Source of the DNA: a virus
Lineage: Duplodnaviria; Heunggongvirae; Uroviricota; Caudoviricetes
Direction: 5' to 3' (one strand)
IMG/VR virus record: IMGVR_UViG_3300028887_000098
Length of the DNA: 64,000 bases
Within the stretch, counting starts at the first letter, position 1. The number at the start of each line of letters is the position of its first letter. The translations under genes and the position numbers were made by a program. The notes under the pieces are model-generated. The model saw only the letters and a program-made list of their open reading frames with translations, did no database searches and had not been told where the DNA came from. Shown here piece after piece: positions 2,306 through 33,980 of this stretch.

Positions 2306-5300
2306 ATGGAATCTTTCGTTTTTAATAGTTTTAAACAGAGACTAATGGAATCAGATATTTCTTTATCTGGTACTTGGTATGCATATCCTGTTAATTCTAA
2401 ATTTATTGATGACTATGGTGATAAATTAAAATATTTAAAAGATACACACGATTTACGTTTGTTCTGTCCAGATAGTGCTGTAAATTTACAATTTTTTGAT
2501 GATGGTATTGGTACTAATCAGCATTTTTATAGAACTGATATGGGTTCGCAATATTATACATATACGTCTATGTATGAGACCGATGTTCCATCTGAACCAT
2601 ATTATGTTACTTTAAATAATATTAAAGCATTTAATGAAGAAAATCCAGGTCAAGAACATCTTGAATCATTGTTTTTAAAACAAGATGGTAAATTTTATAG
2701 ACCAATAAGTGATTCAGATCCGACACCACGTGGTTTCTATTTTATTAAAACTTCTGAAGAATTATTATGGTGCGCCAATAAAGTAAATGGAACTAATTTT
2801 GATAATACAATCAATATTGTTTTAGGTGACAATATTGGTACAAATGTAATGGTAAAAGATGTCAATAATAATGATGTTCCATTGAGTAAAGAAAATATTG
2901 ATGAATATTTTAGTAAACTTAAAAAAATTGGTTATGGAATTGGAACGAATCCAGCACAACCATTTAATGGTATTTTCTTCGGTAATGGTTTTAAAATTCT
3001 TAATATTGATTTAATTTGTAATAATGATATCAATGGATTAATTGGTTATCTTGGTTATAATGGTTGGATTTCAACTATTATAATTGATGGTGTTAACATT
3101 GTTGAATGTAAAAAAACAATTAATATTGACCATTTAGTTTATGAAGGCACTGATGTTTGTGTCGGTATATTATGTGGTAAAAATAATGGTAAAATAGAAA
3201 ATATTGTCGTTAATGGTGAAATAATTTTCAAAGACTTTATTCCAAGTATATATAGTACAAGGAATAAGACAGAAGATGTAAATGCTGTAGATAATGATAA
3301 TTATCCTTATTATCCTGATTTTTATTGCTATGATTCATTAGGTAATATTGTTCCATATATTGGATATTTTAACGAAGGCGTTTTTGCTACATATTCTGGT
3401 TATAATTTAAAAGATGACGTTTTTTATCTTTATTGGAACACAAGACCAGCTAATAATTTAACAATAAAAGATATAGTAGAAAGCGTAACAAGTCCATGTG
3501 AATGGTATTATTGGAATGGTTTAGGACCAGATACATCTGATTATAAAATTCCTGGTTATTTTATGTATTTTACAGCATTACCAAATAGACGTAATGTTTT
3601 ATGGTATGATGCTAATATTATTACAAAAACGAATGATGATTTAAATTCTTTGAAATCACCATCTATTTCAGATATTGGTTTATTTGGTTTTAATTATAAA
3701 GACCCAATGACTCCGCAATCAATGAAAGGCATTGCTAATGCTAATTATTTTAATAAATCTATTAAATTAAATCAACAGAATAGAGCAGCATATTATGTTT
3801 CTCCATTATTAGGTTTAAATAACAATATAATTAACGGCGTAAGAGTTAATGCAAAGCTTTATACATCTGGTACTTTTGTTGGATTTATGGGCGGTATTGC
3901 TGGTAAGCAATGTTATGGTAATTTAACAGATATTATTAGTAATGTTTCTGCATTAGATATTTGTAATGAAACAGGTTCAGAACTTTTTTATAAGCGTAAT
4001 ATTTTAGAAAATGAAAATTATTCTTTTACAAAAAAGAGTATTAAGAATATTTCTAGTTTATTTGGTTCTTGCGTAGTTGGTAATCTTCATTCATTATTCC
4101 TTAATAGTGTAAATTCTTATTTAACAAATTATAATAATGTAGTATTCCCGAAAAATTCAAATGAACCGGAATATGACGATTATTATTTCTTAAATAGATA
4201 TGGTGCATTAGCTGCAATAGTTGAATATAATTCAACTAATATTAGTGATATTTGGCGTGATAATGAACAATTAAATAATATTGTAAATAAATCAATTTTT
4301 ATTACAAATTCTACATTTGGTTATAAAGAAGAAAAATGTTCTGATAGTAATACATATGATTTATTAATGCCATATGAGCTTATTGATAATGATACATATG
4401 TAAATCCTACAGCTAAAGGTAAATATATGTTTGGTATTGCATCACCATTGATTGCAGAAATCAAACCAACATATTTATCTGTTCCGTCTATTATTTCAAC
4501 AGTTTATGAAAACGGCGGTCATAAATTAACTCAATCAGAAGATGAAAAAACTGATTTTAATACTGTTGGTCTTTTCGGTGTAGATCAGAATTTTGCAAGT
4601 AATTATGTAGATGGTAATTTCTGGTCAATCAATATGGAAACAGATTTGCCAGGTGTTGCAAATTCAGGTTTACAAATAGAAAATACATATTGTGGTATTG
4701 CAGGTGGTGTTATTGACCGTTTAAATGTAACTGCAGGTGAAAATTTTGACCTTAATATTCAAAATATTGCTTCTAAGTTAATATCTTGGAATGGTTGTAA
4801 AGTTGTTAAAAATTATGATAAAGATTTGAATTCATTATCATCTATTACAGTTCCAGCTGCAGCAGCAATAGAACCAGCAACATTTGTAACATCTGATGAT
4901 ATTGATATGAAAACTGGTAAAATAACTGATGAGAATATAATTCCATCAGCATGCGGTGATCTTGAGAATATTCCAGATGGTGCAATTGCAGCAACTAAAT
5001 TTAGAGGCGTATATGATTATGCTGCAAATAAAGTTGTAAATACATATCCATATTTTGGTTCAGATATAGAACTTGACTTAGTATCTGCAGTAGAATGTGA
5101 TCCGATATTAAAAACAGATTTAACACAATTAAAAAATACAGTTATTTCATTTAGTGCAAAAAATCAGTTATATTGGAATTATAAAGATTTTAACTTTGAA
5201 AGAAGCCTTTTTGCAGATAAGACTAATCAACCTACACCTTATAGATGGTTGGTTAATAATGTTACTGATGTTGTATTTAATATAAATTCTGACGCATTTA

Positions 5301-7279
5301 AATATCAACCATTTACAGATGTTCCATTAACTAGTCTGGAACAAATTCAAAATTATTATGGTGATATTTATGTTAATACAACTAAAGGTAGATTAGATCG
5401 TTTTGGTAAAGGTGATGAAGTATTTGATAAAATAGTAATTTGGGATTTAAATGAATTTTTTGAAGGTGGTTTATATCAACCAACAAAATATTTTGACTTT
5501 CCTGCATTAAGTGGTTTTGTATTTATAAATGATAATACAAAAAATGAAGAAAGTACGGATGAAAGACGATATTCAGTATTTGTTATTCCATTTAATATAT
5601 TACCATTTGATAGAAAAGTTGAAGATATGATAAATCCTCCATATAGTTTCTTTGAAGGTTTTTATGTTCAATGCTGGAGAGAAAAACGTGGTGATAATAG
5701 AAAATATGAAAATATGTTAGGAGAAAAACCACATCCAAAAACAGGTAAAGTTTATTATCCATATAAAAAACGAAATTATCTAATACCAGAACCAGACTCA
5801 ATTAAGGTTAGATTACAAAAACAGTATTTTATTGGTTATGATGATGTTGGTAACGCATTATATACAGAACCTGATGTATTACCTACTTTAACAACTGCTT
5901 ATTTAACAACACAACGTTGGACATTAGATGATAATGGTAATCCAATATTTGTTGAACGTAAAGATAACGGTTATCCGCAATGGGAACCAATTCCGACAAC
6001 GTTAGAACCTAGCGCTGCTTATACAGGATATTTACCACTTATACCATCTTCTTATGGTAATAATTGTATAAGTTATTTAAGTGCTGTTATTTCAGCAAAT
6101 GTTTCTGCAACACCAGAAGAATTCTATTTTATTAATGGTGAGGATGATCCAACAGATGAATCAGCTATGTATGTTGTTAAAAATTATCAATGTTATGGCT
6201 ATCCAGAATCTAATACTGCAAGATTAACAAGCCGTGATAAAATTAATTCTGCAGTTGATCCAACATATCGATTAGTTATGTCGGCTGTTGAATTAAGAAA
6301 TGTTCCATCTGCATTTTGGAACTGGCAAACTGATTTTGAAACATATTTTTCAAGTGCATTTTATGATAATGAAGAATATGTAGAATCAGAAGCAGTAAAA
6401 CATGGTATAGCACCAGGATATACTCAATCATTAACAGGTCTGGAATATTTAAATGCAGGTAAGTTTAATGATTTAGCAAATCCATATGATTATGAATATT
6501 CTGGTATAAATTATTGTGGTGGTCGTTCTGATGCGCCGCCAGTATGGAAATATGTTGGTGATGGCCAAGCAGTTGAGAAAATACCAGATTCATGGACTGC
6601 AACAGATACATCTGGTAAGTTCCATACAAATTTATTACCAAGTAATAATGTAAATGGTTTAATTCCTACTACTGAAGATAGAAGTATATTTGACCCTTCT
6701 ACTTTTAGTAGTGTATTATTTAATAATTTAGATATAACTGCAAAAGAAAAGATAGAAAATAATATAGAACTTGCAAGTCAGGATGCGGCACATGGAACAA
6801 ACTACTTTAAATATACTTATACAAAAAATCCAGGTGAAAAAATAGAAAAAATTGAATTACCAGTTAAGTTCGATTATAAGAATGGAAAACGTGGATTCTG
6901 GTATAATGCTGGTGTTGTCACAAGTGGTGATTATGAATATAATGATAAGGTAAATTATTATGGTAATATTCTAGCTATTGGCAAGACATTAAGTCAGCAT
7001 TCTATTTTGAATAAGTGTTTAACAACTACTGAGATGAGTTGGACAGTATCTGGTTTTTCCGCTGATGATTTTGAAGGTTTGTATATTACAGATTCTGCAC
7101 ATAAACCAGTAATGTATATTGATGTTGGTTTAGGTGAATGTTCTGATGGAACATCTTGGTCATTTAGTAGTTATCCGTCTGTAAATTCTGCAGATTATAT
7201 CACTGAAACAGATCCTGAAGCAGCATATATAAATGCAATGAATACTAATTGTTCTGGTTTATTATTGGAGATTGAATAA
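2306..7279 (+). CDS. very large structural protein (1657 aa), probable tail fibre/baseplate component
   Basis: Long N/G/Y/T-rich ORF typical of fibre or baseplate proteins. Sits in a block with other virion genes. ATGA overlap with the next ORF. Confidence 0.4.
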   Translation: MESFVFNSFKQRLMESDISLSGTWYAYPVNSKFIDDYGDKLKYLKDTHDLRLFCPDSAVNLQFFDDGIGTNQHFYRTDMGSQYYTYTSMYETDVPSEPYYVTLNNIKAFNEENPGQEHLESLFLKQDGKFYRPISDSDPTPRGFYFIKTSEELLWCANKVNGTNFDNTINIVLGDNIGTNVMVKDVNNNDVPLSKENIDEYFSKLKKIGYGIGTNPAQPFNGIFFGNGFKILNIDLICNNDINGLIGYLGYNGWISTIIIDGVNIVECKKTINIDHLVYEGTDVCVGILCGKNNGKIENIVVNGEIIFKDFIPSIYSTRNKTEDVNAVDNDNYPYYPDFYCYDSLGNIVPYIGYFNEGVFATYSGYNLKDDVFYLYWNTRPANNLTIKDIVESVTSPCEWYYWNGLGPDTSDYKIPGYFMYFTALPNRRNVLWYDANIITKTNDDLNSLKSPSISDIGLFGFNYKDPMTPQSMKGIANANYFNKSIKLNQQNRAAYYVSPLLGLNNNIINGVRVNAKLYTSGTFVGFMGGIAGKQCYGNLTDIISNVSALDICNETGSELFYKRNILENENYSFTKKSIKNISSLFGSCVVGNLHSLFLNSVNSYLTNYNNVVFPKNSNEPEYDDYYFLNRYGALAAIVEYNSTNISDIWRDNEQLNNIVNKSIFITNSTFGYKEEKCSDSNTYDLLMPYELIDNDTYVNPTAKGKYMFGIASPLIAEIKPTYLSVPSIISTVYENGGHKLTQSEDEKTDFNTVGLFGVDQNFASNYVDGNFWSINMETDLPGVANSGLQIENTYCGIAGGVIDRLNVTAGENFDLNIQNIASKLISWNGCKVVKNYDKDLNSLSSITVPAAAAIEPATFVTSDDIDMKTGKITDENIIPSACGDLENIPDGAIAATKFRGVYDYAANKVVNTYPYFGSDIELDLVSAVECDPILKTDLTQLKNTVISFSAKNQLYWNYKDFNFERSLFADKTNQPTPYRWLVNNVTDVVFNINSDAFKYQPFTDVPLTSLEQIQNYYGDIYVNTTKGRLDRFGKGDEVFDKIVIWDLNEFFEGGLYQPTKYFDFPALSGFVFINDNTKNEESTDERRYSVFVIPFNILPFDRKVEDMINPPYSFFEGFYVQCWREKRGDNRKYENMLGEKPHPKTGKVYYPYKKRNYLIPEPDSIKVRLQKQYFIGYDDVGNALYTEPDVLPTLTTAYLTTQRWTLDDNGNPIFVERKDNGYPQWEPIPTTLEPSAAYTGYLPLIPSSYGNNCISYLSAVISANVSATPEEFYFINGEDDPTDESAMYVVKNYQCYGYPESNTARLTSRDKINSAVDPTYRLVMSAVELRNVPSAFWNWQTDFETYFSSAFYDNEEYVESEAVKHGIAPGYTQSLTGLEYLNAGKFNDLANPYDYEYSGINYCGGRSDAPPVWKYVGDGQAVEKIPDSWTATDTSGKFHTNLLPSNNVNGLIPTTEDRSIFDPSTFSSVLFNNLDITAKEKIENNIELASQDAAHGTNYFKYTYTKNPGEKIEKIELPVKFDYKNGKRGFWYNAGVVTSGDYEYNDKVNYYGNILAIGKTLSQHSILNKCLTTTEMSWTVSGFSADDFEGLYITDSAHKPVMYIDVGLGECSDGTSWSFSSYPSVNSADYITETDPEAAYINAMNTNCSGLLLEIE

Positions 7280-8181
7280 TGGCAAAACAACAAGTCTTTA
7301 ATAGTTTTTTAAAGTTATTGATGAGTGGAAAGGAAAAGGAAGAAATTTATAATAAAATGAGTTTCGACCTTTGGTTTTGCTCTAAAAATATAAATTTCAG
7401 CAATGATTTAGATGATAGATTAGGCAATTATTTTGATGCAAATAATTCTAAGCAGATTCTATATATTGGTAATCTTGGAAATATGGAAATTCAAAATGTA
7501 TTTAGTGAAGATGGCTTACCAACTGAAGATTGTTACCAATCTAAAGGTTTTTTGAATATTCCAGCTTCTGCTTATATTTTTTCAAAACATAATTATCCAA
7601 GAGATTGCAGAGTTGATCAAGATTATAATTATATGGGTTATGATTATTATGTTGAAGATACAACATTAAAACTTGATTCAAATCAAGTATTTATGGAACC
7701 TAAAAATAATTATGATATTACCACACTTTCTGCAATGGATTTTTATGAACATGACGTAAAACCGACATGGCAGAATATAGGACCTTATTTTAAAACTGAA
7801 TATGGTTTTACATCAGGTTATGATGATAAAGAATATTCGATTTATAATATTGAAAAAATACCGTTAGTTGAAGACCAATTTAATGTTTATTCAAATAATA
7901 CTAAATTTGATATTCAATCTACTAATATTATAGGTGGTGCATTTTTAGTAACTTGGTATGATGGTGAGAGAGCTAATGTATATAATGATAACGGCAAAGA
8001 AGTTCTTGAAGAACTTAATCAAGTTACTAAGCAAAAAAATCCATTGATTTATGCAAATAAGCCTACTGAACCACAAAATTCAATTTTAGTCAGTTATACT
8101 GAATTACCGAAGACATTTAACTTAAATAAAATGACGATGAATATACAATGGTCAGAAAATGGCTTATTTTCAATAAAATAG
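7279..8181 (+). CDS. hypothetical protein (possible fibre-associated/structural)
   Basis: 300-aa ORF coupled by start/stop overlap to the 1657-aa ORF. Confidence 0.3.
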   Translation: MAKQQVFNSFLKLLMSGKEKEEIYNKMSFDLWFCSKNINFSNDLDDRLGNYFDANNSKQILYIGNLGNMEIQNVFSEDGLPTEDCYQSKGFLNIPASAYIFSKHNYPRDCRVDQDYNYMGYDYYVEDTTLKLDSNQVFMEPKNNYDITTLSAMDFYEHDVKPTWQNIGPYFKTEYGFTSGYDDKEYSIYNIEKIPLVEDQFNVYSNNTKFDIQSTNIIGGAFLVTWYDGERANVYNDNGKEVLEELNQVTKQKNPLIYANKPTEPQNSILVSYTELPKTFNLNKMTMNIQWSENGLFSIK

Positions 8182-8256: not shown

Positions 8257-8775
8257 ATGTCTATATACAGTAAGAGCTATACACAGGGTATATATAATCC
8301 AAAGAGACCAGAAAAATGTATAAACATTAATGGTGCTATGGGTACAACATGTAATACAATTACATATCGTAGCAGTTGGGAATTAAAATTTATGAAATTC
8401 TGTGACAAGTATGATTCAATACTTGAATGGGGTTCGGAAGTTTTAAAAGTTCCATATATATCAGAAGTCGATGGTAAGCAACATACTTACATTACCGACT
8501 TCTATTTTGTTTGTAGGGATAAGACTGGAAAAATAGTAAAATATATACTTGAAGTAAAACCAAAATCACAAATGCCAAGACTTGATGAATGTGGTCAGAT
8601 TCTTTATCCAGAACCACCAAAAACAAAAAGTCAACGTGCATTGAATGCTTGGCAGGAACGTTGCAATGTTTTAAGAGTTAATAATTCTAAATGGCAAGCA
8701 GCTCGTAAATGGTGTAGAGAACATGGTTTTATATTCAAAGTGTTGACAGAAGAAGAAATCGGAATAAATTACTAA
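8257..8775 (+). CDS. hypothetical protein with PD-(D/E)xK-like motif
   Basis: The spacing YRSSWE ... ITDFYF ... ILEVKP resembles an E / D / ExK nuclease-fold core. Otherwise unrecognised. Confidence 0.3.
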   Translation: MSIYSKSYTQGIYNPKRPEKCININGAMGTTCNTITYRSSWELKFMKFCDKYDSILEWGSEVLKVPYISEVDGKQHTYITDFYFVCRDKTGKIVKYILEVKPKSQMPRLDECGQILYPEPPKTKSQRALNAWQERCNVLRVNNSKWQAARKWCREHGFIFKVLTEEEIGINY

Positions 8776-9685: not shown

Positions 9686-10498
9686 ATGAAAAATATTAAA
9701 GAAATGTTGGATGCAGTTGTCAAACCGATTAAGCTTGGTGGAAGCTCTCTGTTTTCTAATTTTTTAACTGAAGAGTCAGATTATGAAGGTTCTAAAATTT
9801 TAACAGAAGAAGATGATCCATTTGCTGCAGGTGGTGCAGATGCAGGTGGTGGCGATGCAGGCGGAGCAGACGCAGGTGGTGGTGCTGATCCATTTGCTGC
9901 AGGCGGTGGTGCTGGTGGCGATGCAGGTGCTGATCCATTTGGTAACAATATGGGTGGCGGAGCAGATGCAAGCGGTGCAGCAGGCGGAGATGGTAACGCT
10001 GACGGTAATGCAGAAGGTGATGATGACGAAGATAAAGATTCTGATGAAAATCCGGCTTTAACTGACGGTTCTCATGACCCAGACCCAGAATTTAACCAAG
10101 GTCAGACTGACCCGAATGATGTTACCTTATCTAAGGATGCATCAATTAATAACAAGTTTAATATCACTGATATTATGAAGACAGTTGCAACTGTTATTCA
10201 GACATTAAGTGAAGACCAGCTTGTTGAAATTGAAAAAGTTAAGAATGACGTTGAATTAATTTTTAATGGTTTCTTGCTTAACGATGAAGATTTGGATTTT
10301 GAAAATGTCACTAATGCAATATTCTTAATTGAAAAAATTGCTGAAAAGTTAGACATTAAAACAAAGAACTACTTAATCAGAAAGATGAAAGAACCATTGA
10401 TTAAGAAACGTGACAGCATTAAACAAGATATTGCCACTAAGAAGGGTGAACTTAATAATGCTCGTGACATTCTTACAAAACTTGATACTAAGGTATAA
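9686..10498 (+). CDS. hypothetical protein with Gly/Ala/Asp low-complexity repeat region
   Basis: Residues about 45-115 are (G/A/D)n with two 'DPFAAGG' repeats, encoded by imperfect GGTGCAGATGCAGGTGGTGG repeats. The C-terminal half is ordinary globular sequence. Confidence 0.4.
   Translation: MKNIKEMLDAVVKPIKLGGSSLFSNFLTEESDYEGSKILTEEDDPFAAGGADAGGGDAGGADAGGGADPFAAGGGAGGDAGADPFGNNMGGGADASGAAGGDGNADGNAEGDDDEDKDSDENPALTDGSHDPDPEFNQGQTDPNDVTLSKDASINNKFNITDIMKTVATVIQTLSEDQLVEIEKVKNDVELIFNGFLLNDEDLDFENVTNAIFLIEKIAEKLDIKTKNYLIRKMKEPLIKKRDSIKQDIATKKGELNNARDILTKLDTKV
9830..10030 (+). repeat. imperfect short tandem DNA repeats (GCAGGTGGTGCAGATGCAGG-like) encoding a Gly/Ala/Asp tract
   Basis: Seen directly in the sequence. 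It is a GC-rich island in an AT-rich genome. Confidence 0.5.
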
Positions 10499-10546: not shown

Positions 10547-11032
10547 TTAGTTTAATTCGAATTCTGGAAGATCTTCAACCTTTTCTTCAACAGGGGTTGA
10601 TTCTTCGATTACTGGTTCTTCCTGAACTGTGACAGCCACCTCTTTCTTCTTTCTAGTTTTCTTTGGCTTATTTTCAACAACCGGAGTTTCTTCAGTTGTT
10701 TGCGTTGTTTCAACATTTGTTTCAGGAACATCTGTAACCTCTTCTACTTTATTTTCTTGTTGTTCTTTTTCTTTCTTAGCTTGTAAACCAGCAATAAATG
10801 CCTGGTATTCAGCTTCAAATGCATCCATTGACTTTGCAGGAGCAGAAACTGTAGAACCTCTACGTTCAGGAATGACAGGCGCAACAGGTTCTGACAATTC
10901 TATACCTGCCATCCTAGCATGTGCTTTATCAGATTCAGTATAGTTTGCATAGTTATTTGTATATCTGTCTCGCATTCTTGCTTGCAAGTCTTCTAAGAAA
11001 TTCTTGTGAATTGTATTAACTTTTCTTCCCAT
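10547..11032 (-). CDS. hypothetical acidic protein (start moved to internal Met)
   Basis: The tracked ORF 10547..11074 overlaps the upstream gene. The Met at 11030-11032 is preceded by AAGGAA and avoids the overlap. E/T/V/P-rich C-terminal half. Confidence 0.35.
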   Translation of the reverse strand: MGRKVNTIHKNFLEDLQARMRDRYTNNYANYTESDKAHARMAGIELSEPVAPVIPERRGSTVSAPAKSMDAFEAEYQAFIAGLQAKKEKEQQENKVEEVTDVPETNVETTQTTEETPVVENKPKKTRKKKEVAVTVQEEPVIEESTPVEEKVEDLPEFELN

Positions 11033-11036
11033 TTTA

Positions 11037-11417
11037 TTATTCCTTAATGTGTAACAACATTGTTTCGGGAACATTATAGACTATATATCCAGGCGGATTT
11101 GCCTTATTCCCTTTTATAATTTTTAATGTAAACAAATTTATATTATTTATTGGATCTGACCTGCCAATAATTTGATAAATACATACATCACCATCGACAT
11201 TACTTGTAACTTTGTCATTTATATCAAATGGTCTATATGTTTCATCAATCTCTACAGAATTTGTAGATTTTTCGATTGTTTCAGGATTTATTGTTTTTGC
11301 ATTTTTAACGGTAATAGTAAGTTCTCGAGCAATCCATTCAGGACAGTTCTTGCTACTTACTATTTTTTTAATACCATTTAAAAGAATATTTAGCTGTTCT
11401 TTTCGTATATCTTCCAT
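11037..11417 (-). CDS. hypothetical protein
   Basis: 126-aa ORF in a minus-strand operon. Confidence 0.3.
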   Translation of the reverse strand: MEDIRKEQLNILLNGIKKIVSSKNCPEWIARELTITVKNAKTINPETIEKSTNSVEIDETYRPFDINDKVTSNVDGDVCIYQIIGRSDPINNINLFTLKIIKGNKANPPGYIVYNVPETMLLHIKE

Positions 11418-11420
11418 AAG

Positions 11421-11999
11421 TTAGTTTGAATTATTTTCATCAAAGAACAACGTTTTTAAAATTTGAAGTTCTTTTTTAAATTTCTTCAAGCAATCTTCAA
11501 CAGTTTTGTCAAAATCGCGTAAATGTCCGCTTATTTGTCTTGCAAGTCTACCAGCACTTCCGGCTCTTGTTGGTGGATAGTTATTAGTTTCGAATCCTTT
11601 TATAAAGTCACTTTCGGTTTTTTGTTCATCATCAATAGTCTTATCGAAGAATTTTGAATACATTGTCCAACATGAATCTTCAAATGTCTCAATAGATTCT
11701 CTTAATTCATATCCTTCGCGAAGTCTACGTTTCTTTTTCTTTCTCTTTTTCTTTGGAATTTGATTTAACCAATAGCCTGGATGATGAGCAGCAGGAACAC
11801 CATTATAAAGTGGATTTGTTTTAAACGGAGAACGTTGATATAATAATCCCATACGTTGTGGACAACAACCTTTACAATCACCGCCATGTGGAATACCTTG
11901 GTCAGCACCAAGTGGTCCACCTACACCAATTCCGAAATCTTCGTCTAAAACTTTATAACCGTTTTCTTTAAGTACTTCTATTGCTTCATCTAAAGTCAT
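11421..11999 (-). CDS. putative packaged internal-protein-like protein; N-terminal targeting motif followed by a copy of the capsid protein maturation-site region
   Basis: N-terminus MTLDEAIEVLKENGYKVLDE|DFGIGVGGPLGADQGIPHGGDCKG is close to MCP residues ~52-78 (LLTE|DFTQGVGAPLGLDQGIPHGGDAKG). A KKKRKKKKRR basic patch follows. Confidence 0.5.
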   Translation of the reverse strand: MTLDEAIEVLKENGYKVLDEDFGIGVGGPLGADQGIPHGGDCKGCCPQRMGLLYQRSPFKTNPLYNGVPAAHHPGYWLNQIPKKKRKKKKRRLREGYELRESIETFEDSCWTMYSKFFDKTIDDEQKTESDFIKGFETNNYPPTRAGSAGRLARQISGHLRDFDKTVEDCLKKFKKELQILKTLFFDENNSN

Positions 12000-12006
12000 A
12001 AAAAAC

Positions 12007-12444
12007 CTATTTTATGTTTAATTTATACTTATTATTTATAGCATCTATATAAAAATTCCATTTATTTTGATGTGCATAGTTTTCTAAGTATAAAATTTTA
12101 TTAAATAAATCCATATTTTTTGAATTATAAGCATCAAATGCTGCAGAAATATCAGAACTGGTTAGTTCTAAAAAGACTTTATAATGTGTCATTTCATGTA
12201 ACATTGTCTTTTCGATTGCTTCATATGGTCTTTTATGGTTTTTAGAAATTTCGATTCTAGGATTTTTTAAAATTCTATTTTCAAAATCAATATCGAATTT
12301 GAAATATCCGTTTACATCTGGATCATCTATAATAATAACTGGAATTTTGATTAATGAATTATCAAAATACATGTTATTACATGCATCGAAAGTCTTATTT
12401 AAATATTTTTCTGTTAATTCAAAGTTGCTACTAAAAAGAGTCAT
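12007..12444 (-). CDS. putative zinc metallopeptidase (HExxH; SprT/WLM-like)
   Basis: A single MLHEMTHY motif (HExxH) in a 145-aa protein. Confidence 0.35.
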   Translation of the reverse strand: MTLFSSNFELTEKYLNKTFDACNNMYFDNSLIKIPVIIIDDPDVNGYFKFDIDFENRILKNPRIEISKNHKRPYEAIEKTMLHEMTHYKVFLELTSSDISAAFDAYNSKNMDLFNKILYLENYAHQNKWNFYIDAINNKYKLNIK

Positions 12445-12697
12445 AATCTCGCCATGATGATTTTAAGAAATCTGTTCTATCTTTTACAAATGTTTTATTA
12501 TTAACAGTTACTGTCACTGTTTTTGCAGTAGCTTCAACAACCATAACCTTGACTGGACAACATGCCTTTACTTCTGGAATTTTTGTCCAATAATAGTAAC
12601 CTTCTATGATATTAAAGCCATATCGTTCTTTTTCGCTTTTATGTAATCGTTCACATTCTGGACAACGTGGTCTTGGTGGTGGTGGTGGAAAAAACAT
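12431..12697 (-). CDS. small Cys-rich zinc-ribbon protein
   Basis: CPEC ... ACCPV cysteine pairs and an N-terminal PPPPPRPR stretch. Confidence 0.35.
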   Translation of the reverse strand: MFFPPPPPRPRCPECERLHKSEKERYGFNIIEGYYYWTKIPEVKACCPVKVMVVEATAKTVTVTVNNKTFVKDRTDFLKSSWRDYDSF

Positions 12698-12698
12698 A

Positions 12699-13238
12699 CT
12701 AATGCTTCCTTAATATAGTGTCTAACTCATCGTTTAATCGTCTGACAACATATTGCTTTGATAGTATTTCAGAGTTAAATAGGCAATTTTGAATTCGTTT
12801 ACCTTTATATAATCCTTTAATCCAGTTGACAGAAGATAAACAATACATTTTTGGACGTAACCATTCTCTAAGCTTGAACATTAACAAGTCAAGATTAGAA
12901 ATTGCGTTATGTTCTTCCTGGGTTTGTGGATTTCTTATTAATTTTCCATTACGGTCAATAAGACCTAGCTTATAAGCCTTTGTCGTTGATGGAATAGTAG
13001 TAATAGCTTTAAGAAAAACAAAAACAAGAACGTTATCTATGTCCCTGTTATGAGTACTTAAATTTATTTTCTTATTATGTGATTTTAAAGAGTATAATGT
13101 TTCATGTGCTTCTGTTAATATATCATTTGCTTCAAAATAAGCAGACATTGTTTCAGCATTGTTTACCAAACGCTGTAAACCAGAAACACTATTTTTATCT
13201 TCTAAGGCGTAAAAAAATCTTTCCCAGAGTTTTTCCAT
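12699..13238 (-). CDS. hypothetical protein
   Basis: 179-aa ORF. Confidence 0.3.
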   Translation of the reverse strand: MEKLWERFFYALEDKNSVSGLQRLVNNAETMSAYFEANDILTEAHETLYSLKSHNKKINLSTHNRDIDNVLVFVFLKAITTIPSTTKAYKLGLIDRNGKLIRNPQTQEEHNAISNLDLLMFKLREWLRPKMYCLSSVNWIKGLYKGKRIQNCLFNSEILSKQYVVRRLNDELDTILRKH

Positions 13239-20289: not shown

Positions 20290-21912
20290 ATGAATCTTAA
20301 TTTTTTAAACCCATTTAGCTCTGAATTCTTAAAAACTTCTCCTGAACACAGTGAACAGCGTGCAATCGAAGCAGCACGTAATTCATACGGTAAAGGTGAA
20401 GACACAATTGACTGGAATGCTATTGCGGGCAGTTATGATAATAACGGCTATGTAGATCCAGCTACACCTTATGACCAAAATAATATTGTTTTTGAAACAT
20501 TATTTACAAATAAATGGCAAAAAATTTCTTGGTATCGTTCTATGGCCATGTACCCATTGGTTGGTAAAGGTTTGAACATTATGGCGGACGAAGCAGTTTG
20601 TCCAGACGCACTTGGAAATGTTGCAATGTTCGATATTGAGGAACCATTCAAATCTAAATTTACTTCAACAGAATTTGCAGCATTGAAGATGGAATTTGAT
20701 TATATTGTTGACTGTGTTATTGGTAAAGAAAATATTTGGGATTATTATTATAAATGGCTTGTTGATGCCGAACTTTTCTGGGAAATTTGTTTAAATGATG
20801 CAGGTGATAAAGTTGTTGGTATTAATACTTTAGCACCTTATGCAATGCTCGTAATTTATGACAAGGATTCTGATAATATTAATGGTTATATTGAAAACAT
20901 TAATTATCTCAATCAGACACAAGATAAGACTTCCGAAATTAAGAAGTTCCTTCCTAACCAAGTTGCTTATGTCAGATATCCGTTAATTTGGACAAACAGA
21001 AATGATATTCGTGGTCACTTGGAACGTTCTATTAGACCTTTGAACCAGTTAAGAAATATTGAAGATGCTTTGACTGTTTATCGTATCACTCGTGCAACTG
21101 AACACCGTGTATTTAACATTTATACTGGTAGAATGCCGAGAACTGATGCTGCAGCTTATGTCCAGGAAATCAGAAATAAGTATCGTAAGAATTTGACTAT
21201 TGATAATACTACTGGTATGGTCAATGCTGTTAAGAATACACAAGCAATGACTGAAGATTTCTTCTTCCAGAAGGATGACTCTGGTAACGGTTCCACAGTT
21301 GAAACTTTCCCATCTGGTTCTACTTTTGATGGTCAGCTTCAGGATGTTTGGATGTTCCAGAAGCAGGTTATGGACGGTATGTTTATTCCTCAGGCAAGAT
21401 GGAAATCTGATGAAGTTGGTGGTGCTTCTTATAATCCTGGTATTGATCAGGCAAATCATGAAGAAGTTTCCTTCCAGAGGGTTAATAGAAGATTAAGAAG
21501 AAGATTTGCAGATATTATTAAGCAGGTTTACCTTGTTCACTTGAGAGTTCGTGGTTATAAGGAAAAATTCCTTGATAAGGCTTTGTATAATATCGATTTG
21601 CATCCAGCAACTGACTTTGAAAGAATGCGTGACTTGAACCTTGCCGAAAAACGTGGTTCTGTTATTGGTACTCTTTCTCAGTTCCTTCCAACTTCTACTA
21701 ATATTAAGCCGGGTGCTGAAGAACTTGCTCCGATTTTCTCTAAGCAATTCTTTATGGAGAAGATTCTCGGTATGTCTACACAGGATATTCTCTTGAATAA
21801 TAAGATGCTTGAATCTGAAATCAAACAGATGAGAGAAGAAGCAGAAGCTGCTCAAGCAGAAGGTGGTCCAGCTCCTGATGCTGAAGGTGGTGGAAACGAT
21901 TTCGGTTTCTAA
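20290..21912 (+). CDS. portal protein (T4 gp20-like)
   Basis: The segment LTVYRITRATEHRVFNIYTGRMPRTDAAAY ... MTEDFFFQKDD aligns with T4 gp20 [30 protein letters not shown] ... MTEDYWLQRRD. Length 540 aa versus 524. Confidence 0.9.
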   Translation: MNLNFLNPFSSEFLKTSPEHSEQRAIEAARNSYGKGEDTIDWNAIAGSYDNNGYVDPATPYDQNNIVFETLFTNKWQKISWYRSMAMYPLVGKGLNIMADEAVCPDALGNVAMFDIEEPFKSKFTSTEFAALKMEFDYIVDCVIGKENIWDYYYKWLVDAELFWEICLNDAGDKVVGINTLAPYAMLVIYDKDSDNINGYIENINYLNQTQDKTSEIKKFLPNQVAYVRYPLIWTNRNDIRGHLERSIRPLNQLRNIEDALTVYRITRATEHRVFNIYTGRMPRTDAAAYVQEIRNKYRKNLTIDNTTGMVNAVKNTQAMTEDFFFQKDDSGNGSTVETFPSGSTFDGQLQDVWMFQKQVMDGMFIPQARWKSDEVGGASYNPGIDQANHEEVSFQRVNRRLRRRFADIIKQVYLVHLRVRGYKEKFLDKALYNIDLHPATDFERMRDLNLAEKRGSVIGTLSQFLPTSTNIKPGAEELAPIFSKQFFMEKILGMSTQDILLNNKMLESEIKQMREEAEAAQAEGGPAPDAEGGGNDFGF

Positions 21913-25700: not shown

Positions 25701-25826
25701 ACTCAGGATCCAGAAGATCCAACAATCATGAATGTCAATATCATTGTCTACCCGACAAGCGCTATCGAATTCATCGATGTTAAGATTATCATTAACCGTT
25801 CTACAGTCACCGTTACTGAAGAATAA
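22770..25826 (+). CDS. tail sheath protein (T4 gp18-like), enlarged
   Basis: The C-terminal core ...RAPAGVACG ... GQKTA ... LNRINVRRCLNYIEKRL... aligns with T4 gp18 ...SPAGYNRG ... GDKTA ... FDRINVRRLFNMLKTNI.... It is 1018 aa against 659 in T4, implying extra insertion domains. Confidence 0.9.
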   Translation: MAKYSTPGIRFTEIDNTIRSEAAPGMGIGAIVMKSNKGPVNQRVVTRNYNEFTEIFGEPETLTDYGHFAAENYFANSTQMYAVRATMGDEQYSQIQFSYDGAPVTATNKSKDTAKFVYVDNQSDNTLKLLSPLSAVTEVESMSADWQLDNGGVYGYAMKQNAYYGTFADILSETEDLIVYKGKQKTPGNESWEGNITEYGEHVVYPRYVDSQGKNPVPETKLIFTDKAWTAGSATSAECDIKKRNSQYYVTVSVPASATLNKKQVNINFYGNYSAVSAWETTGVTYSGIFNDQVFQGNFSGDWANTLSAGYGYVPAQRMEIMDWDDPEIKKTFYVDSTFSATTSGVSGLKYTEFFSVDPTYALFANCPKIDFDPTKVGNEAIMTSAVSDMYLSTTTAKLPQYGNNEIPARSPKDVIIDMLDAYSCNDISDINDYTYLKYYDPTQNAIIEKIVKETPKQLADEKHQEKYLFWLYAGKGENKLTKAPVYIADDTEMVSLPIQKGYFYDDGTQEKTVLNNIVAQPSSYIFNSVDKTYADGYTVRTEAEDEPGNGDIEQYKSVFDDQLVIASIGPGKYGDDVGVSIITTECSEIAALNHQNAFNWKYAYDDEDKVNADTSEYNDNPMNLTWKKVFRINVYIKPKTQTAEAAWGFGMDALLKDPAESWFVSTDPYAKDDNGNSLYAPIVINGHSDYIYVSRASVNDARNGVGEYVQPKQTFAIYGLTGGKNSEKNNISEKTAALSLYTDRRRAPFDILFNVDAIDTFNGRQRYNAHQRKIAQIAGSRTMDIGVIQVTSKSAKTAKQMVSETKTFSFNKGDYVAQYAGYDKYYNGALASWIYLPKSVAGACAMAYCDTFAYPWRAPAGVACGTINYTNGQLLKLTDDEIGQLYDNNVNTSRDCGNYGVVLWGQKTALKKNSLLNRINVRRCLNYIEKRLENKMTPYLFMQNSVNTRASARNDIDSFLQQVKAAEGIDRYQLSVTQDPEDPTIMNVNIIVYPTSAIEFIDVKIIINRSTVTVTEE

Positions 25827-27953: not shown

Positions 27954-28226
27954 ATGAAAGACATTAATGAAGGTTTATTTAAGGATAAGTATCAGCGATA
28001 TAAAGACGCAGTTGTTAAATGTTTGAAGCATCGTGGAATTAACGCATTCATGTTGGGACATAAGTTGGAAGCATATTGCCGAGATTTTTTCTTAGATAAT
28101 ATGTCAGCAGATGATTGTGCTACGACTATTGCTGAGCAAGAAATGGTTAAAGAAAGCGCAGAGATGAATGAAGCAATAAGAATAATGCGTGAACATGGAT
28201 ATAGGGTAAGACCATACAAGAAGTAA
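27954..28226 (+). CDS. small protein with C-terminal 'EAIRIMREHGYRV' motif
   Basis: The last 20 residues carry the same EAx+hh+ExGY+h motif found at the N-termini of the 11421, 32348 and 35178 ORFs. Confidence 0.35.
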   Translation: MKDINEGLFKDKYQRYKDAVVKCLKHRGINAFMLGHKLEAYCRDFFLDNMSADDCATTIAEQEMVKESAEMNEAIRIMREHGYRVRPYKK

Positions 28227-28363: not shown

Positions 28364-29341
28364 ATGGATAAAATTCTTGAAACCCTTTCCCAAAAATTCT
28401 CAGCAGAAGAATTGAATGAGGTCAAAAAGGCTATTGAATTCACTGTTGATGAAAAGGTAAAGGCAAAGTCTGAACAAGAAGCCAAGATGATTGCCAAGAA
28501 AGCTGATGAATTTTGTCAGAAGAAGATTAAGGAAGCTGTTGAAAAGAAGACTGCCGAAATCGAAGAAATTGCTAACAAGTTCTGCGAAGAACGTTGTGAA
28601 AAGTTGAGCAAGGAAGCCGATGCAAAGGTTGAATCTTATAAGAAGAAACTCGAAGAAGCTTCAGAACAGTATATCCTTGAATATTTCGATGAGAAGTTCA
28701 CAGAAAAGTACGGGCAAGAACTCGAAGCTATCGAAGAAAAAGTTATTACAGGCTTGGATAAGTATCTTGAATATAACATCAATGAAAAGATTGGTCCGGA
28801 AATGATTCAGAAGACTGCATTGCAAGAAACCTGTCAGCCGATTGTTGAAGAGTTCATTCACATTCTTGAAGACAGATATGTTGCACCTAACACCACTGGT
28901 TCTAAGAGAATCCGCGAATTGAAGGCAGAAAATGCTGAAGTCCGTGCATCTCTCCAGAAGCAGCTCGATGAAAACATGCGTCTCGCTGAATTGGTCGAAA
29001 GCACTGGTAAGAAGTCTTTGATTTCTGAAAAGGTTGCTGACCTCTCTGCAGATCAACGTCTCAAGGTTCGTAAGTTCTTCAAGGAAAAGAGCTTGAATGA
29101 AACTAAGAAGGATATTGATGCTTATATCGAAATGATCCAAGAACAAGCTGACTCTATCAACGCTATGCGTTATGAAAGAGAACAATTGTTTGAAAGTCAT
29201 GAAAAGCCGGTTCGCAAGTCTCGCTATGTCGAAGACCGCACGAACGAAACTATCACTGAAAAGTTTAAACCAAAACGCCGTGAATTGAGCGCTCGCGAAC
29301 GCATGATGCTTGGTTCCGCTAACCTAATTGATGAAAATTAA
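28364..29341 (+). CDS. prohead scaffolding protein (gp22-like)
   Basis: 325-aa, highly acidic, K/E-rich helical sequence immediately upstream of the major capsid gene. Confidence 0.55.
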   Translation: MDKILETLSQKFSAEELNEVKKAIEFTVDEKVKAKSEQEAKMIAKKADEFCQKKIKEAVEKKTAEIEEIANKFCEERCEKLSKEADAKVESYKKKLEEASEQYILEYFDEKFTEKYGQELEAIEEKVITGLDKYLEYNINEKIGPEMIQKTALQETCQPIVEEFIHILEDRYVAPNTTGSKRIRELKAENAEVRASLQKQLDENMRLAELVESTGKKSLISEKVADLSADQRLKVRKFFKEKSLNETKKDIDAYIEMIQEQADSINAMRYEREQLFESHEKPVRKSRYVEDRTNETITEKFKPKRRELSARERMMLGSANLIDEN

Positions 29342-29428: not shown

Positions 29429-30748
29429 ATGAAGATTACAAAGACACAAGCCGGTATGATGGAACGCTGGGGCAAGGCTCCAGGCGGACTTTCAGTCGCT
29501 GGCATTAAGGACAATCTTGTCCGTTATAATACTGCACGTCTTTTGGAAAACCAGCAGACTAAGAACCTCGGTTCTGAACTCTTGACTGAAGATTTTACTC
29601 AGGGCGTAGGTGCTCCACTTGGTCTTGACCAGGGTATTCCACACGGTGGTGACGCAAAGGGTGTTTTCGCACCGATTTCTTTGGCACTTGTCCGTCGTGT
29701 TTTCCCACAGCTTTTCGCTAACGTCCTCGTTGGTGTTCAGCCATTGACTGGTCCTGTCGGTCTTGCTTTCGCACTCCGTTACATTTATAAGACCAATAAC
29801 CCGAACGAACTCGTTGAAGCCGCATGGAAGGCAGTTCCTCGCTTCTCTGGTTATACCGGTTCTACCGCTAACACAGATGGCGAATGGGATGCTGGTACTG
29901 GTGTTGATACTCAGTCTGCTGAAGGCTGGAAGATCACTGGTCCGACCTTCGGTTCTGATGACCCGTCTGTAAGCCGTAAGATGCCAGAACTTGGTCTTAT
30001 GCTCAGCCGTCAGTCTATCGTTGCTAAGACCCGTAAGCTCGCTGCTAGCTTCTCTCTCGAATCTGCAGCTGATATCAAGGCTATGCAGGGTATCGAAATG
30101 ATGACTGAAATGATCAACGTTCTCCAGCAGGAAATGACTGCAGAAATGGACCGTGAAACAATCGGCCGCTGCAAGAGCCTCTGTACTCCACGTGTTTACA
30201 ACAAGGCTGATCAGACCCTCGCTAACAACGATTCCTTCATTGGTACAAACTCTCAGGAACGTTTCGGTCTCATTATCACTCACATCATGAAGGGTGTTAA
30301 CGACATTCGTACCGCTACTCGTCGTGGTGCTGCTAACATCGCAGTCGTCTCCCCAGACGTTGCTACTGTTCTTCAGGTTGCTAACCCATGGTTCACCAAG
30401 GTTGCTCATGAAGTTAACGGTTCTGCAGTTACTCCGGAAATGGGTACATTGAACGGTGTTGTTAAGGTCTTCTGTGACCAGTATGCTGTTGACGAATTCG
30501 GCGCAAACGACAACGGTGAAGTTCTCTTAGCATTCAAGGGCTCTAGCCTCTATGATGCTGGTGTTATCTTCTGCCCATACGTTACCGGTGTTGTCAACCA
30601 GGCAATCGATCCTAACGACTTCTCTCCAAGAGTCGGTATCATGAGCCGTTATGGTTTCGCACACAACATGCTTGGTGCTGAAAACTATTATCGCTTGCTC
30701 AAGTTCAACGGACTCTTCCAGGATGCTCCAGAAGCTCTCGTTTGGTAA
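29429..30748 (+). CDS. major capsid protein (T4 gp23-like)
   Basis: ISLALVRRVFPQLFANVLVGVQPLTGPVGLAFALRYIY aligns with T4 gp23 VMGMVRRAIPNLIAFDICGVQPMNSPTGQVFALRAVY. An L-T-E|D site upstream is positioned like the gp23 propeptide cleavage site. Strong SD (AGGAG). Confidence 0.9.
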   Translation: MKITKTQAGMMERWGKAPGGLSVAGIKDNLVRYNTARLLENQQTKNLGSELLTEDFTQGVGAPLGLDQGIPHGGDAKGVFAPISLALVRRVFPQLFANVLVGVQPLTGPVGLAFALRYIYKTNNPNELVEAAWKAVPRFSGYTGSTANTDGEWDAGTGVDTQSAEGWKITGPTFGSDDPSVSRKMPELGLMLSRQSIVAKTRKLAASFSLESAADIKAMQGIEMMTEMINVLQQEMTAEMDRETIGRCKSLCTPRVYNKADQTLANNDSFIGTNSQERFGLIITHIMKGVNDIRTATRRGAANIAVVSPDVATVLQVANPWFTKVAHEVNGSAVTPEMGTLNGVVKVFCDQYAVDEFGANDNGEVLLAFKGSSLYDAGVIFCPYVTGVVNQAIDPNDFSPRVGIMSRYGFAHNMLGAENYYRLLKFNGLFQDAPEALVW

Positions 30749-32347: not shown

Positions 32348-33208
32348 TTAGCGACGACCACGACCGACACCTCTGTTTCTATTATAAGCAGATTGTCTTG
32401 TACCAGCAGCAGAGTCCATATTTTCACCAGCTAACATAGCGTTTGTAATTTTATACAATGCGTCAGTTGGGCTATTAGCTTGGCGAAGTCTTGTTGCAAA
32501 AGTATTATAATACTTATCACCGATACCTTTACCAACTGCGGTTTTTACATCAGCCAATACTTTTTCGATTGCACCTTGAAGACCTAGTTGTGCAACAATA
32601 GCAAAGAATTTGCCACCAGAAACATATTCTTGACAAATACTTGTGAATGTAGTTCCTTCTGTGTCACCGAAATCTTCATTCAACTTACCGTCTTTCTTCT
32701 TTGCCCAGAAAGGAACAAATTCAGACTTCTTGCCTTTCTTCTTACCTTTCTTTTTCTTGCTACCAGCACCGCAGCAACCTTCATCTAAGTCACTGAAATC
32801 AAGATCATTTGCTGAAATTCTTTCACCAGTATCAGTATTTTCAACATAAGCAAGCTTATAATATGTTCCGTTACCAGTGTCACAAGAACCAAGTTGAATA
32901 ATATCGTCAGCAACATCAGTTCCGAATTCATTAGCCATTTCTTCAAAAGTGTAGCTTACTGTTTCGTTTGGTTCTTGGTTATCGAAGTCAGGAAAATCAT
33001 TATCTGGATTATAATAAATATCGACGCCGTAAACACGATTATCATCTACATCTTCATTAATGATTTGATAACCAGCACGTTTTGCTACACGCTTTGCTTC
33101 TTCAAGTTCTTCACGTGCAACACGCTCGCGGAATGATTCGCCTTCAATATTTTTAGCGATACGATAGCCTCGCTCTTCTACAATTTTTTTAGCTTCCAAG
33201 AATGTCAT
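32348..33208 (-). CDS. putative packaged internal protein (targeting-motif family member, poly-Lys patch)
   Basis: N-terminus MTFLEAKKIVEERGYRI, with a second copy LEEAKRVAKRAGYQI. Also has CCGAGSKKKKGKKKGKK and a C-terminal RNRGVGRGRR. Confidence 0.45.
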   Translation of the reverse strand: MTFLEAKKIVEERGYRIAKNIEGESFRERVAREELEEAKRVAKRAGYQIINEDVDDNRVYGVDIYYNPDNDFPDFDNQEPNETVSYTFEEMANEFGTDVADDIIQLGSCDTGNGTYYKLAYVENTDTGERISANDLDFSDLDEGCCGAGSKKKKGKKKGKKSEFVPFWAKKKDGKLNEDFGDTEGTTFTSICQEYVSGGKFFAIVAQLGLQGAIEKVLADVKTAVGKGIGDKYYNTFATRLRQANSPTDALYKITNAMLAGENMDSAAGTRQSAYNRNRGVGRGRR

Positions 33209-33314: not shown

Positions 33315-33980
33315 ATGGAAGCTAAAAAGTTATTAAATGAAGCAGCTATTGCCGAATCAAAGATTCTTAATGAAGAAACAAACGGCGTAAAGCACATGTA
33401 TATTTCTGGTCCTTTCCTTCAGGCAGTAGATACTAACAGAAATGGTCGTATTTATTCTAGGGAAATTATTGAAAGAGAAGTTAACAAGTTCCAGAGTCTT
33501 ATTGAGTCTCGTGAAGCCGTTGGTGAACTTTCTCACCCAGAATCAATCGAAATTAACCCAGACCGTGCAGCAATCTTGATTACTGAATTGAAGATGGATG
33601 GTAATCTCGCAATCGGTAAGGCTAAGGTTCTTACTACTCCATGTGGAAAGATTCTCGAATCCCTTTTGAATGACGGTGTTCGTATGGGTGTTTCTTCAAG
33701 AGGAACTGGTAACTTGACTGAAGGTAATATGGTTGCAGACGACTATTCTCTTGCTACAATCGATGCAGTTTACATGCCTTCCGCACAGGTCGCATATGCA
33801 GATGCAATGTATGAATCTGTCCAATATGCTTCTAAGTGGGTTCTTAACGAAGCAACTGGTCTCTATATTGAAAAGAGAGAAAAAGTTGACGAAGCTACTA
33901 AGGCATTCAATAAGAAGGTTGACGATATTGGTTCTAAGATTATCGTTGAAGCTTTCAAGGATTGGTTAAAGTCAATCTAA
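33315..33980 (+). CDS. prohead core protease (T4 gp21-like, S78/U9 family)
   Basis: GELSHPES and GVSSRGTG match the His- and Ser-containing active-site blocks of the gp21 family. Size (221 aa) and position next to the capsid genes are consistent. Confidence 0.7.
   Translation: MEAKKLLNEAAIAESKILNEETNGVKHMYISGPFLQAVDTNRNGRIYSREIIEREVNKFQSLIESREAVGELSHPESIEINPDRAAILITELKMDGNLAIGKAKVLTTPCGKILESLLNDGVRMGVSSRGTGNLTEGNMVADDYSLATIDAVYMPSAQVAYADAMYESVQYASKWVLNEATGLYIEKREKVDEATKAFNKKVDDIGSKIIVEAFKDWLKSI

Follow-up and report, generated by a model that had tools for sequence, protein, structure and literature searches.

Capsid cleavage junction and mature N-terminus copied in a small gene of an uncultured T4-like phage

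Why does a small gene of a T4-like phage repeat the segment at which its major capsid protein (MCP) is expected to be cut during head maturation? The question is raised by an open reading frame (ORF), 11421-11999, in IMGVR_UViG_3300028887_000098, an IMG/VR record of a virus of the Caudoviricetes. We analysed 64,000 nucleotides of this record, a stretch called the window below. The two genes concerned, and the parts of the MCP that matter here, are as follows.

11421..11999, minus strand: small ORF, 192 aa; predicted polyprotein of a propeptide, a fist-mimic/basic peptide and an acidic helical domain
29429..30748, plus strand: MCP of the T4 gp23 family, 439 aa; Pfam Gp23 PF07068 (E 5e-69), PDB matches to T4 gp23
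29429-29590, plus strand: MCP propeptide (residues 1-54)
29591-29668, plus strand: MCP N-fist (residues 55-80)

Residues 16-44 of the small protein (KVLDE/DFGIGVGGPLGADQGIPHGGDCKG, the slash marking the cut site) correspond to MCP residues 50-78 (ELLTE/DFTQGVGAPLGLDQGIPHGGDAKG). The two are identical at 21 of 29 positions over the shared stretch and at 19 of 24 past the glutamate. BLASTP aligned residues 11-58 with MCP residues 45-93 (26/49 identities, E 1e-12), bearing out the capsid junction and N-terminus that a sequence-only reading of this DNA had claimed for the small protein. That reading had also called the two segments near-identical and had put the capsid copy at MCP residues ~52-78. 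The similarity is indeed strong and the region is the right one, but the counts fall short of near-identity and the numbering is off by two residues at the start. A phmmer search of the six-frame translation of the window returned two copies (E 2e-10 and 4e-10) and no third, the next match to the hidden Markov model (HMM) of the motif having an E value >1.

Over the 29 shared codons, 60 of 87 nucleotides (69%) are identical and synonymous differences are numerous; the similarity has therefore been kept at the protein level. Identical DNA at both loci would have pointed to a recent recombination scar, and this test came out negative. A scar is ruled out by the DNA comparison together with the pairing, across contigs, of one MCP fist with differing variants of the copy (see below). 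The small protein occurs in identical or near-identical versions on at least 22 metagenome contigs, with conserved neighbours, and metagenomic homologues numbered 80. Among GenBank phages, close relatives of the ORF were absent at both the DNA and the protein level.

The nature of the shared segment was determined by alignment with T4 gp23, whose sequence we re-derived through PDB matches. MCP LTE/D55 aligns with gp23 LTE/A66, and 32 residues separate the cut from (L/M)VRR in both proteins, supporting the earlier view that the L-x-E junction is the MCP maturation site. Judged by this comparison, the shared 26-mer is the MCP N-fist, the first residues past the prohead-protease cut. The T4 N-fist consists of gp23 residues 66-91 (PMC7136217). 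In the cleaved, unexpanded T4 head it is disordered and internal, and on expansion it shifts outside, touches four subunits and helps make the Soc site; the N-terminal part of gp23 is thought to have contacted the scaffolding core in the immature head, on the basis of the first ordered residue and of head-length mutations at A66, A94 and G97 (PMC9958956, PMC9546572, PMC7136217).

Two further head genes of the window bear on the cleavage.

33315..33980, plus strand: prohead maturation protease, T4 gp21 family (Pfam PF03420 Peptidase_S77, E 1.9e-28)
28364..29341, plus strand: scaffold, gp22-like (Pfam T4_CASP, E 5e-7); 23 aliphatic-x-E sites, no motif-HMM match

Only the MCP and the small ORF carry the motif, though the scaffold has 23 aliphatic-x-E sites without a fist; the fist is therefore not a general requirement of the protease, and we ruled out this explanation of the two copies. 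Cleavage of the small protein by the same protease, proposed earlier, can reasonably be predicted because the junction matches, the window encodes a protease of the gp21 family, and the glutamates before the fist copy and after the Lys/Arg run, E20 and E95, are both invariant across the protein's family. The small protein can be divided into six segments.

11940..11999, minus strand: residues 1-20, MTLDEAIEVLKENGYKVLDE, N-terminal helix tag/propeptide ending in the L18-D-E20 site; helix 3-12 in the AlphaFold2 (AF2) model
11862..11939, minus strand: residues 21-46, DFGIGVGGPLGADQGIPHGGDCKGCC, MCP N-fist copy; motif HMM 72.5 bits; nearly invariant in the family
11754..11861, minus strand: residues 47-82, conserved spacer (PQRMGLLYQRSP..NPLY.GVP.AHHPGYWLNQIP); many invariant columns in family alignment A2; low AF2 confidence
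11724..11753, minus strand: residues 83-92, KKKRKKKKRR, polybasic tract
11715..11723, minus strand: residues 93-95, L-R-E, predicted second protease site (E95/G96); E95 invariant in alignment A2
11424..11714, minus strand: residues 96-192, acidic four-helix domain (isoelectric point [pI] 5.0); AF2 predicted local distance difference test (pLDDT) ~90

Structure prediction of the shared segment, suggested earlier as a check, gave disorder. The fist copy alone was disordered (pLDDT <50), within a disordered stretch spanning residues 19-66, and residues 93-191 were confidently modelled as a four-helix bundle, for which searches of BFVD and PDB gave no significant match. The protein had been described as basic; this holds for residues 21-95 (pI 10.2) and less so for the whole protein (pI 8.5), residues 96-192 being acidic. 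It is not a capsid or vertex protein of the Gp23 type (PF07068): it lacks the HK97-fold body (P, A and I domains), had no Pfam match, and resembles the MCP within residues 11-58, in a molecule modelled as a disordered segment plus a helical bundle. Its N-terminal tag, LxEAxxIL..GY, is likewise N-terminal in further window ORFs and in further proteins bearing the fist copy. The copy differs consistently from the MCP in having Cys at fist positions 22, 25 and 26. A zinc site, or a reading as a ribosomally synthesized and post-translationally modified peptide, was considered for this Cys/His-rich segment, whose Cys positions are not conserved across sub-families.

A promoter motif places the small ORF with the head genes.

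12033..12040, minus strand: TATAAATA, T4 late-promoter consensus, 33 nt upstream of the small ORF ATG
20290-21912: portal gene

The window holds 42 copies of TATAAATA against 15.7 expected (2.7-fold). Of these, 34 are found no more than 80 nt upstream of an ORF start on their own strand, a placement expected for 5%. The motif precedes each of the MCP, scaffold, protease and portal genes (sites e.g. 29371, 28313, 33278 and 20247), which belong to a T4-type head block that also includes a sheath gene (22770-25826). Given this enrichment and placement, the distant lineage represented by the window therefore appears to use T4-type late promoters.

Our preferred reading, to which we give a chance just short of even, is that the small gene encodes a late-expressed prohead-core polyprotein processed by a gp21-type protease. 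From the anatomy, conservation and distribution of the protein and from its late-promoter motif, we infer its cleavage, its packaging and a binding partner. Cuts by the T4-type maturation protease behind L18-D-E20 and behind L93-R-E95 would give three products: a 20-residue helical propeptide; a 75-residue basic peptide (pI 10.2) with the MCP N-fist copy at its new N-terminus and the Lys/Arg run at its C-terminus; and the 97-residue acidic four-helix domain (pI 5.0). In this clade, the cleaved protein should yield the semi-tryptic peptide DFGIGVGGPLGADQGIPHGGDCK. Before cleavage, the unit made of cut site, fist copy, spacer and Lys/Arg run would bind the partner that holds the MCP junction and fist, a proposal made because the unit copies an MCP segment that lies inside the uncleaved prohead beside the scaffold and protease core. 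It would thereby be enclosed and cut like the MCP. The lysine-tailed peptide left over may then hold acidic core proteins or DNA, and the fused domain would be set free inside the head.

The copied segment belongs to a module that is widespread in metagenomic proteins. A profile of the 32-residue motif run against 1.84 billion cluster representatives yielded 89 proteins, about 85 of them true and few of them MCPs. Module statistics were drawn from 147 collected non-MCP proteins carrying the motif. Their recurring unit consists of an aliphatic-x-Glu site, the fist copy, a short spacer and a Lys/Arg run; where a C-terminal domain follows, a second x-Glu usually precedes it. The P1 residue is Glu in 144/146 and the P3 residue aliphatic in 136/146. 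The Lys/Arg run is present in 125/147, at a median of 30 residues downstream of the fist copy, and [LIVMF]-x-E closes the basic tract in 43 of the 51 proteins that have a C-terminal domain. The module starts anywhere from residue 2 to residue 305, and its flanks fall into at least 11 N-terminal and at least 10 C-terminal clusters (BLASTP E <1e-3). Across proteins only ~50% identical outside it, the fist motif is nearly invariant. We regard cut site, fist copy, spacer and Lys/Arg run as the constant functional unit, a portable one to which varied N- or C-terminal domains are attached in other phages of the clade.

The module gene and the MCP gene are 21-24 kb apart on the IMG/VR contigs that carry them both, among them one of 291 kb and one of 411 kb. 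A single MCP fist goes with several module variants on different contigs, which makes the module an old lineage that evolves independently and did not arise by gene conversion. Versions without any attached domain are conserved, namely T4 gp61.1 (see below) and metagenomic proteins of roughly 105-120 aa (P0038, P0039 and P0047-P0049), and the module therefore has a function of its own.

One sub-family (P0117, P0123-P0134 and P0137; proteins up to 515 aa) appears to be a distinct module variant, with the fist copy DFSMGV(S/E)GPTGLNQGIPHGGPGKG followed by PKPLYNPKAKAVPPK and a mixed-charge stretch rather than a pure Lys run. A 195-kb relative (L007) encodes a 132-aa module protein, near which lie two Cpn10-like co-chaperonins, a ClpP-like protease, SpoVG and an eIF-1a-like protein (4135-4799, 6722-7423); a weak gp2-like ORF is found directly 3' of its module gene. 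A weak Pfam mark beside a relative had suggested that the downstream neighbour is a gp2-like DNA-end protector; we rejected the idea, the window's 126-aa ORF showing no similarity. The relatives L015, L022, L056/L082 and L057/L083 are on IMG/VR contigs of 291-424 kb; the window may come from a jumbo T4-like phage, or these contigs may be concatemers.

No cultured phage carries the window's type of fist. When the junction and fist of T4 gp23 itself were searched against GenBank phages, many genomes yielded two places. In Edwardsiella phage PEi20 the second place is gene 61.1, whose product begins MKTFKEFVNE/EMVAGDSGGSTSNIASGTTTGAVTNKGPEEIPKKRKKEDSEK. With PEi20 gp61.1 as query, 1,512 records gave 2,915 places, that is, gp61.1 and gp23 in almost every record. 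T4 gp61.1 (54 aa; PHROG 1823, "conserved hypothetical") reads MKTFKEFIKE/DMVAGDSGGNPENISTGTTSGAVVNKGPEQIPKKKKEESKEKEE, its fist starting DMVAGDSGGNPENISTGTTSGAVVNKGPEQIPKKKK. Its residues 3-39 align with gp23 residues 58-94, the sole match in the whole PDB, and its fist is identical to gp23 66-93 at 14-15 of 28 positions. In vibriophage KVP40 the arrangement occurs in KVP40.0019 (158 residues), which ends in VEE/SVVAGDSGGDVAAIASGETTGAVTSAGPETIGDKKKKKKKKLKK; the MCP record of KVP20 annotates the mature peptide as starting after LNE. The supposition of the sequence-only reading that such mimicry was undescribed is wrong as stated, since T4 gp61.1 and KVP40.0019 share the arrangement, and some GenBank annotators label gp61.1 homologues "major capsid domain-containing protein". 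In the literature on gp61.1 we found nothing beyond gene tables, and an older remark in a T4 genome review (PMC150520) is possible. The MCP-mimic module as a feature common to the window protein and T4 gp61.1 appears not to have been described previously.

By architecture, we consider the small protein a probable distant counterpart of T4 gp61.1. Like the window protein, gp61.1 has a short propeptide ending in aliphatic-x-Glu, a copy of ~28 residues of its own MCP's N-terminus, and a Lys run; the copy in the window protein likewise is that of the resident MCP. The two differ in fist type (2-4 of 28 positions identical), and no sequence match between them is detectable. A conserved spacer of 36 residues, a second cut site and a helical domain of 97 residues set the window protein apart from gp61.1, and its basic run is much stronger. 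T4 gene 61.1 lies in the replication-gene region beside the primase gene, whereas the window gene is placed among structural genes behind a late-promoter motif. Primase gene 61, adjacent in T4, PEi20 and KVP40 alike, is not adjacent in the window, where the neighbours of the small ORF, between tail and neck genes, are an ORF with a weak sub-threshold SprT-like match and unassigned ORFs.

KVP40.0019 offers a link between the two. It consists of a ~110-residue domain, VEE/, a fist copy and KKKKKKKK. It matches phrog_2086 over its full length and, in its C-terminal part, phrog_1823 (E 6.7e-18; T4 gp61.1 scores 6.8e-34). The layout shows that a larger protein can have the module at its C-terminal end, a position the module also occupies in many relatives of the window protein. 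The N-terminal domain has a homologue two genes upstream of the small ORF, on the same strand.

12699..13238, minus strand: 179-aa ORF (phrog_2086 E 9e-7; phrog_18642 E 4e-9; BLASTP E 1e-6 to KVP40.0019)

Only ~25-60 residues are covered by the match. The domain is fused to the module in KVP40.0019, which has the T4/KVP type of fist; in the window, domain and module are separate genes, two ORFs apart.

Fist identities were 12-24/28 within the T4/KVP group and 18-23/28 within the uncultured group, compared with 2-4/28 between the groups; across deep lineages, then, the copy follows the resident MCP. The parallel between T4 and the window, despite completely different capsid N-termini, argues that the mimicry itself is under selection.

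Several observations weigh against a conserved core polyprotein related to gp61.1. We looked for fine-scale covariation between module and MCP within the same genome, and it was not consistent. Cyanophage T4-likes have no second fist copy (205 places in 205 records), which means that T4-type assembly does not universally include the module. The window protein matched no PHROG family at E values up to 1, including the gp61.1 profile phrog_1823; common descent with gp61.1 therefore rests on architecture and one fusion link. On these grounds common descent is plausible, and an independent origin is possible. The mature T4 gp61.1 peptide is predicted, by a count from its sequence, to be near-neutral and not basic, and a pure DNA-neutralising role is therefore weakened. 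Lastly, for the window protein and T4 gp61.1 alike, cleavage and presence in proheads or virions are predictions.

Other explanations were weighed against the prohead-core reading. The strongest, and the main idea of the sequence-only reading, is that the cleaved fist copy docks in the mature shell: it would fold into an N-fist socket of the expanded MCP lattice that lacks an MCP donor, by pentons or the portal for instance, and serve as cement or as a tether between shell and DNA. In favour of this, the T4 N-fist touches four subunits and needs docking to become ordered; fists that face the portal are disordered (PMC9958956, PMC7136217). A cut exactly at the start of the fist copy, where the site lies in 144/146 proteins, would leave the free N-terminus that the MCP also has, the copy tracks the resident fist between deep lineages, and no gp24-like vertex paralogue was found within the 64-kb window. 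The geometry is less favourable: the docked T4 fist is external and a DNA-directed Lys tail must be internal, while a free peptide should compete poorly with the tethered fist of the MCP itself. The Cys residues particular to the copy also set it consistently apart from the MCP. Moreover, no deposited structure, those of T4 heads among them, has gp61.1 as a modelled chain, the only PDB match to its sequence being gp23, and this absence argues weakly against ordered, high-occupancy docking. On balance we think shell docking possible but unlikely.

A second explanation makes the module a pure cargo-loading tag, without a function of its own, that loads fused domains and is later excised like the T4 capsid-targeting sequence. 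The conservation of versions without cargo, gp61.1 with its 54 aa in ~1,500 genomes as well as P0038, P0039 and P0047-P0049, is hard to reconcile with this, even though the module is the only element common to the many N- and C-terminal flank clusters, has cut sites on both sides, and in other phages is fused to domains that in the window are separate helix-tagged ORFs by the head genes. We regard a pure tag as improbable. A decoy or timer for the protease has, in our estimate, a similarly slim prospect. Here the module would be an optimal copy of the main substrate that buffers or times the enzyme, shielding unassembled MCP for example, and would have no structural role. Such a decoy would account for the copying of both the P and the P' side of the MCP junction (T4 gp61.1 3-39 on gp23 58-94), for the small size of the module and for the late-promoter motif that groups its gene with head genes; it leaves unexplained the Lys/Arg run and the second cut site before C-terminal domains. 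The T4 protease is described as recognising a short L/I-x-E motif, and other substrates of the enzyme do without a fist. To a functionless remnant of partial MCP duplication or gene conversion we give hardly any credence: the segment is short and adjoins low-complexity sequence, but the two loci differ by synonymous changes at 69% DNA identity, one MCP fist is paired with several module variants, and the motif is nearly invariant in proteins otherwise ~50% identical.

Returning to the prohead-core reading, we compared the small protein with known systems. The T4 internal proteins IPI-III and Alt carry a propeptide ending in L/I-x-E that is cut by gp21 in the prohead, the mature part staying in the head, and the T4 capsid-targeting sequence follows rules for residues 4, 7, 8 and 10 (PMC9026906). 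The N-terminus of gp61.1 resembles this targeting sequence of the internal proteins. An N-terminal sequence of ~10 residues of the IPIII kind, which we take to be MKTYQEFIAE, is absent from the window protein, which starts with MTLDEAIEVLKENGYKVLDE and has another tag, LxEAxxIL..GY. An L/I-x-E site after a propeptide (L18-D-E20) and a gp21-family protease in the same genome (Peptidase_S77, 33315-33980) are both present. By analogy, the T4 internal proteins are most probably the known kind of system that the small protein works like. The T4 targeting signal is a discarded 10-residue N-terminal peptide; the window module, unlike it, has its conserved element past the cut, is predicted to be retained, copies the MCP, ends in a Lys tail and may occupy any position in a protein.

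In adenovirus, the maturation protease frees small, strongly basic peptides inside the capsid from the pVII and pX/mu precursors. This is an analogy only, the virus, protease and sequences being unrelated and capsid-protein mimicry being absent. To our knowledge, the head proteins of phiKZ and SPN3US share only a short cleavage motif, and not a copy of the 26-residue mature MCP N-terminus. Many head proteins of these giant phages are reported to have the cleavage motif of the MCP and to lose propeptides (PMC5694885, PMC7411985, PMC10052503).

The genes around the head module of the window contain further proteins built from similar elements.

32348..33208, minus strand: 286-aa ORF in the head-gene block, between MCP and protease; two helix tags, an INE/D site, SKKKKGKKKGKK and KLNE/DFG

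ORF 32348-33208 scored E 9e-6 with the helix-tag HMM, has two tandem N-terminal copies of LxEAxxIL..GY and is preceded by two copies of TATAAATA. It also contains an acidic stretch, a Lys-rich run, CCGAGSKKKKGKKKGKK and a KLNE/DFGDTEG site that starts like the fist. From these elements it looks like a second core or internal protein. The helix tag is N-terminal in 35178-35723 (minus strand) as well as in 32348-33208 (minus strand), and lies near the C-terminus in 27954-28223 (plus strand); in this clade the tag may play the part that the capsid-targeting sequence plays in T4. In phmmer searches these three ORFs resembled domains to which other phages fuse the module. For 27954-28223 and the flanking domain of P0042-44, BLASTP was negative and phmmer gave E 3e-8 in a 156-sequence set, and the homology is tentative. 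Late, tagged proteins with protease sites around the head module are what a set of prohead-core proteins should look like, to judge from their sequences.

Other genes were noted in passing. ORF 9686-10498 (plus strand; 270 aa, very acidic with pI 4.2) has repeated Gly/Ala/Asp stretches of the DPFAAGG(A/D)AGGGD type and two LTE/E sites near its N-terminus; it is preceded by TATAAATA and is possibly a core or internal protein too. ORFs 12431-12697 and 12007-12444 (both minus strand), which overlap by 14 nt, separate the PHROG 2086-like gene from the module gene. One is 88 aa long and starts MFFPPPPPRPRCPECE; the other, of 145 aa, has a weak SprT-like zinc-protease signature (HEMTH; Pfam E 1.4e-3, below threshold). 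ORF 8257-8775 (plus strand) encodes a gp4-like head-closure protein (phrog_218, E 2.6e-39), which TnsA-type endonuclease families match too. The listed start of ORF 10547-11074 (minus strand, 175 aa) overlaps the upstream gene 11037-11417 (minus strand) by 38 nt, and related contigs have calls of 161-162 aa, so the true start is probably an internal Met (MGRKVN...).

The assembly of the T4 head is among the best-studied virus assembly pathways, yet gene 61.1, present in ~1,500 T4-like genomes, is without a described function. A protease site, a copy of the mature capsid N-terminus and a lysine tail make up a design that a very distant T4-like lineage has either retained or invented anew, and an anonymous ORF thereby becomes a concrete hypothesis that is testable in T4. 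It is possible, though in our view rather doubtful, that the peptide of fist and lysine tail is a conserved and so far unrecognised part of how T4-type heads are assembled, in phages ranging from T4, with its gp61.1, to deeply divergent jumbo relatives. It would mimic the MCP N-terminus and occupy a site for the MCP fist, either on the scaffold core of the uncleaved prohead or on the expanded lattice, and the uncultured clade would use it as an address label for loading many proteins. If the module is such a label, T4-type capsids would have a second way of taking up proteins, one derived from the MCP. This would be of practical interest for delivery vectors based on T4, which at present rely on the targeting sequence of 10 residues.

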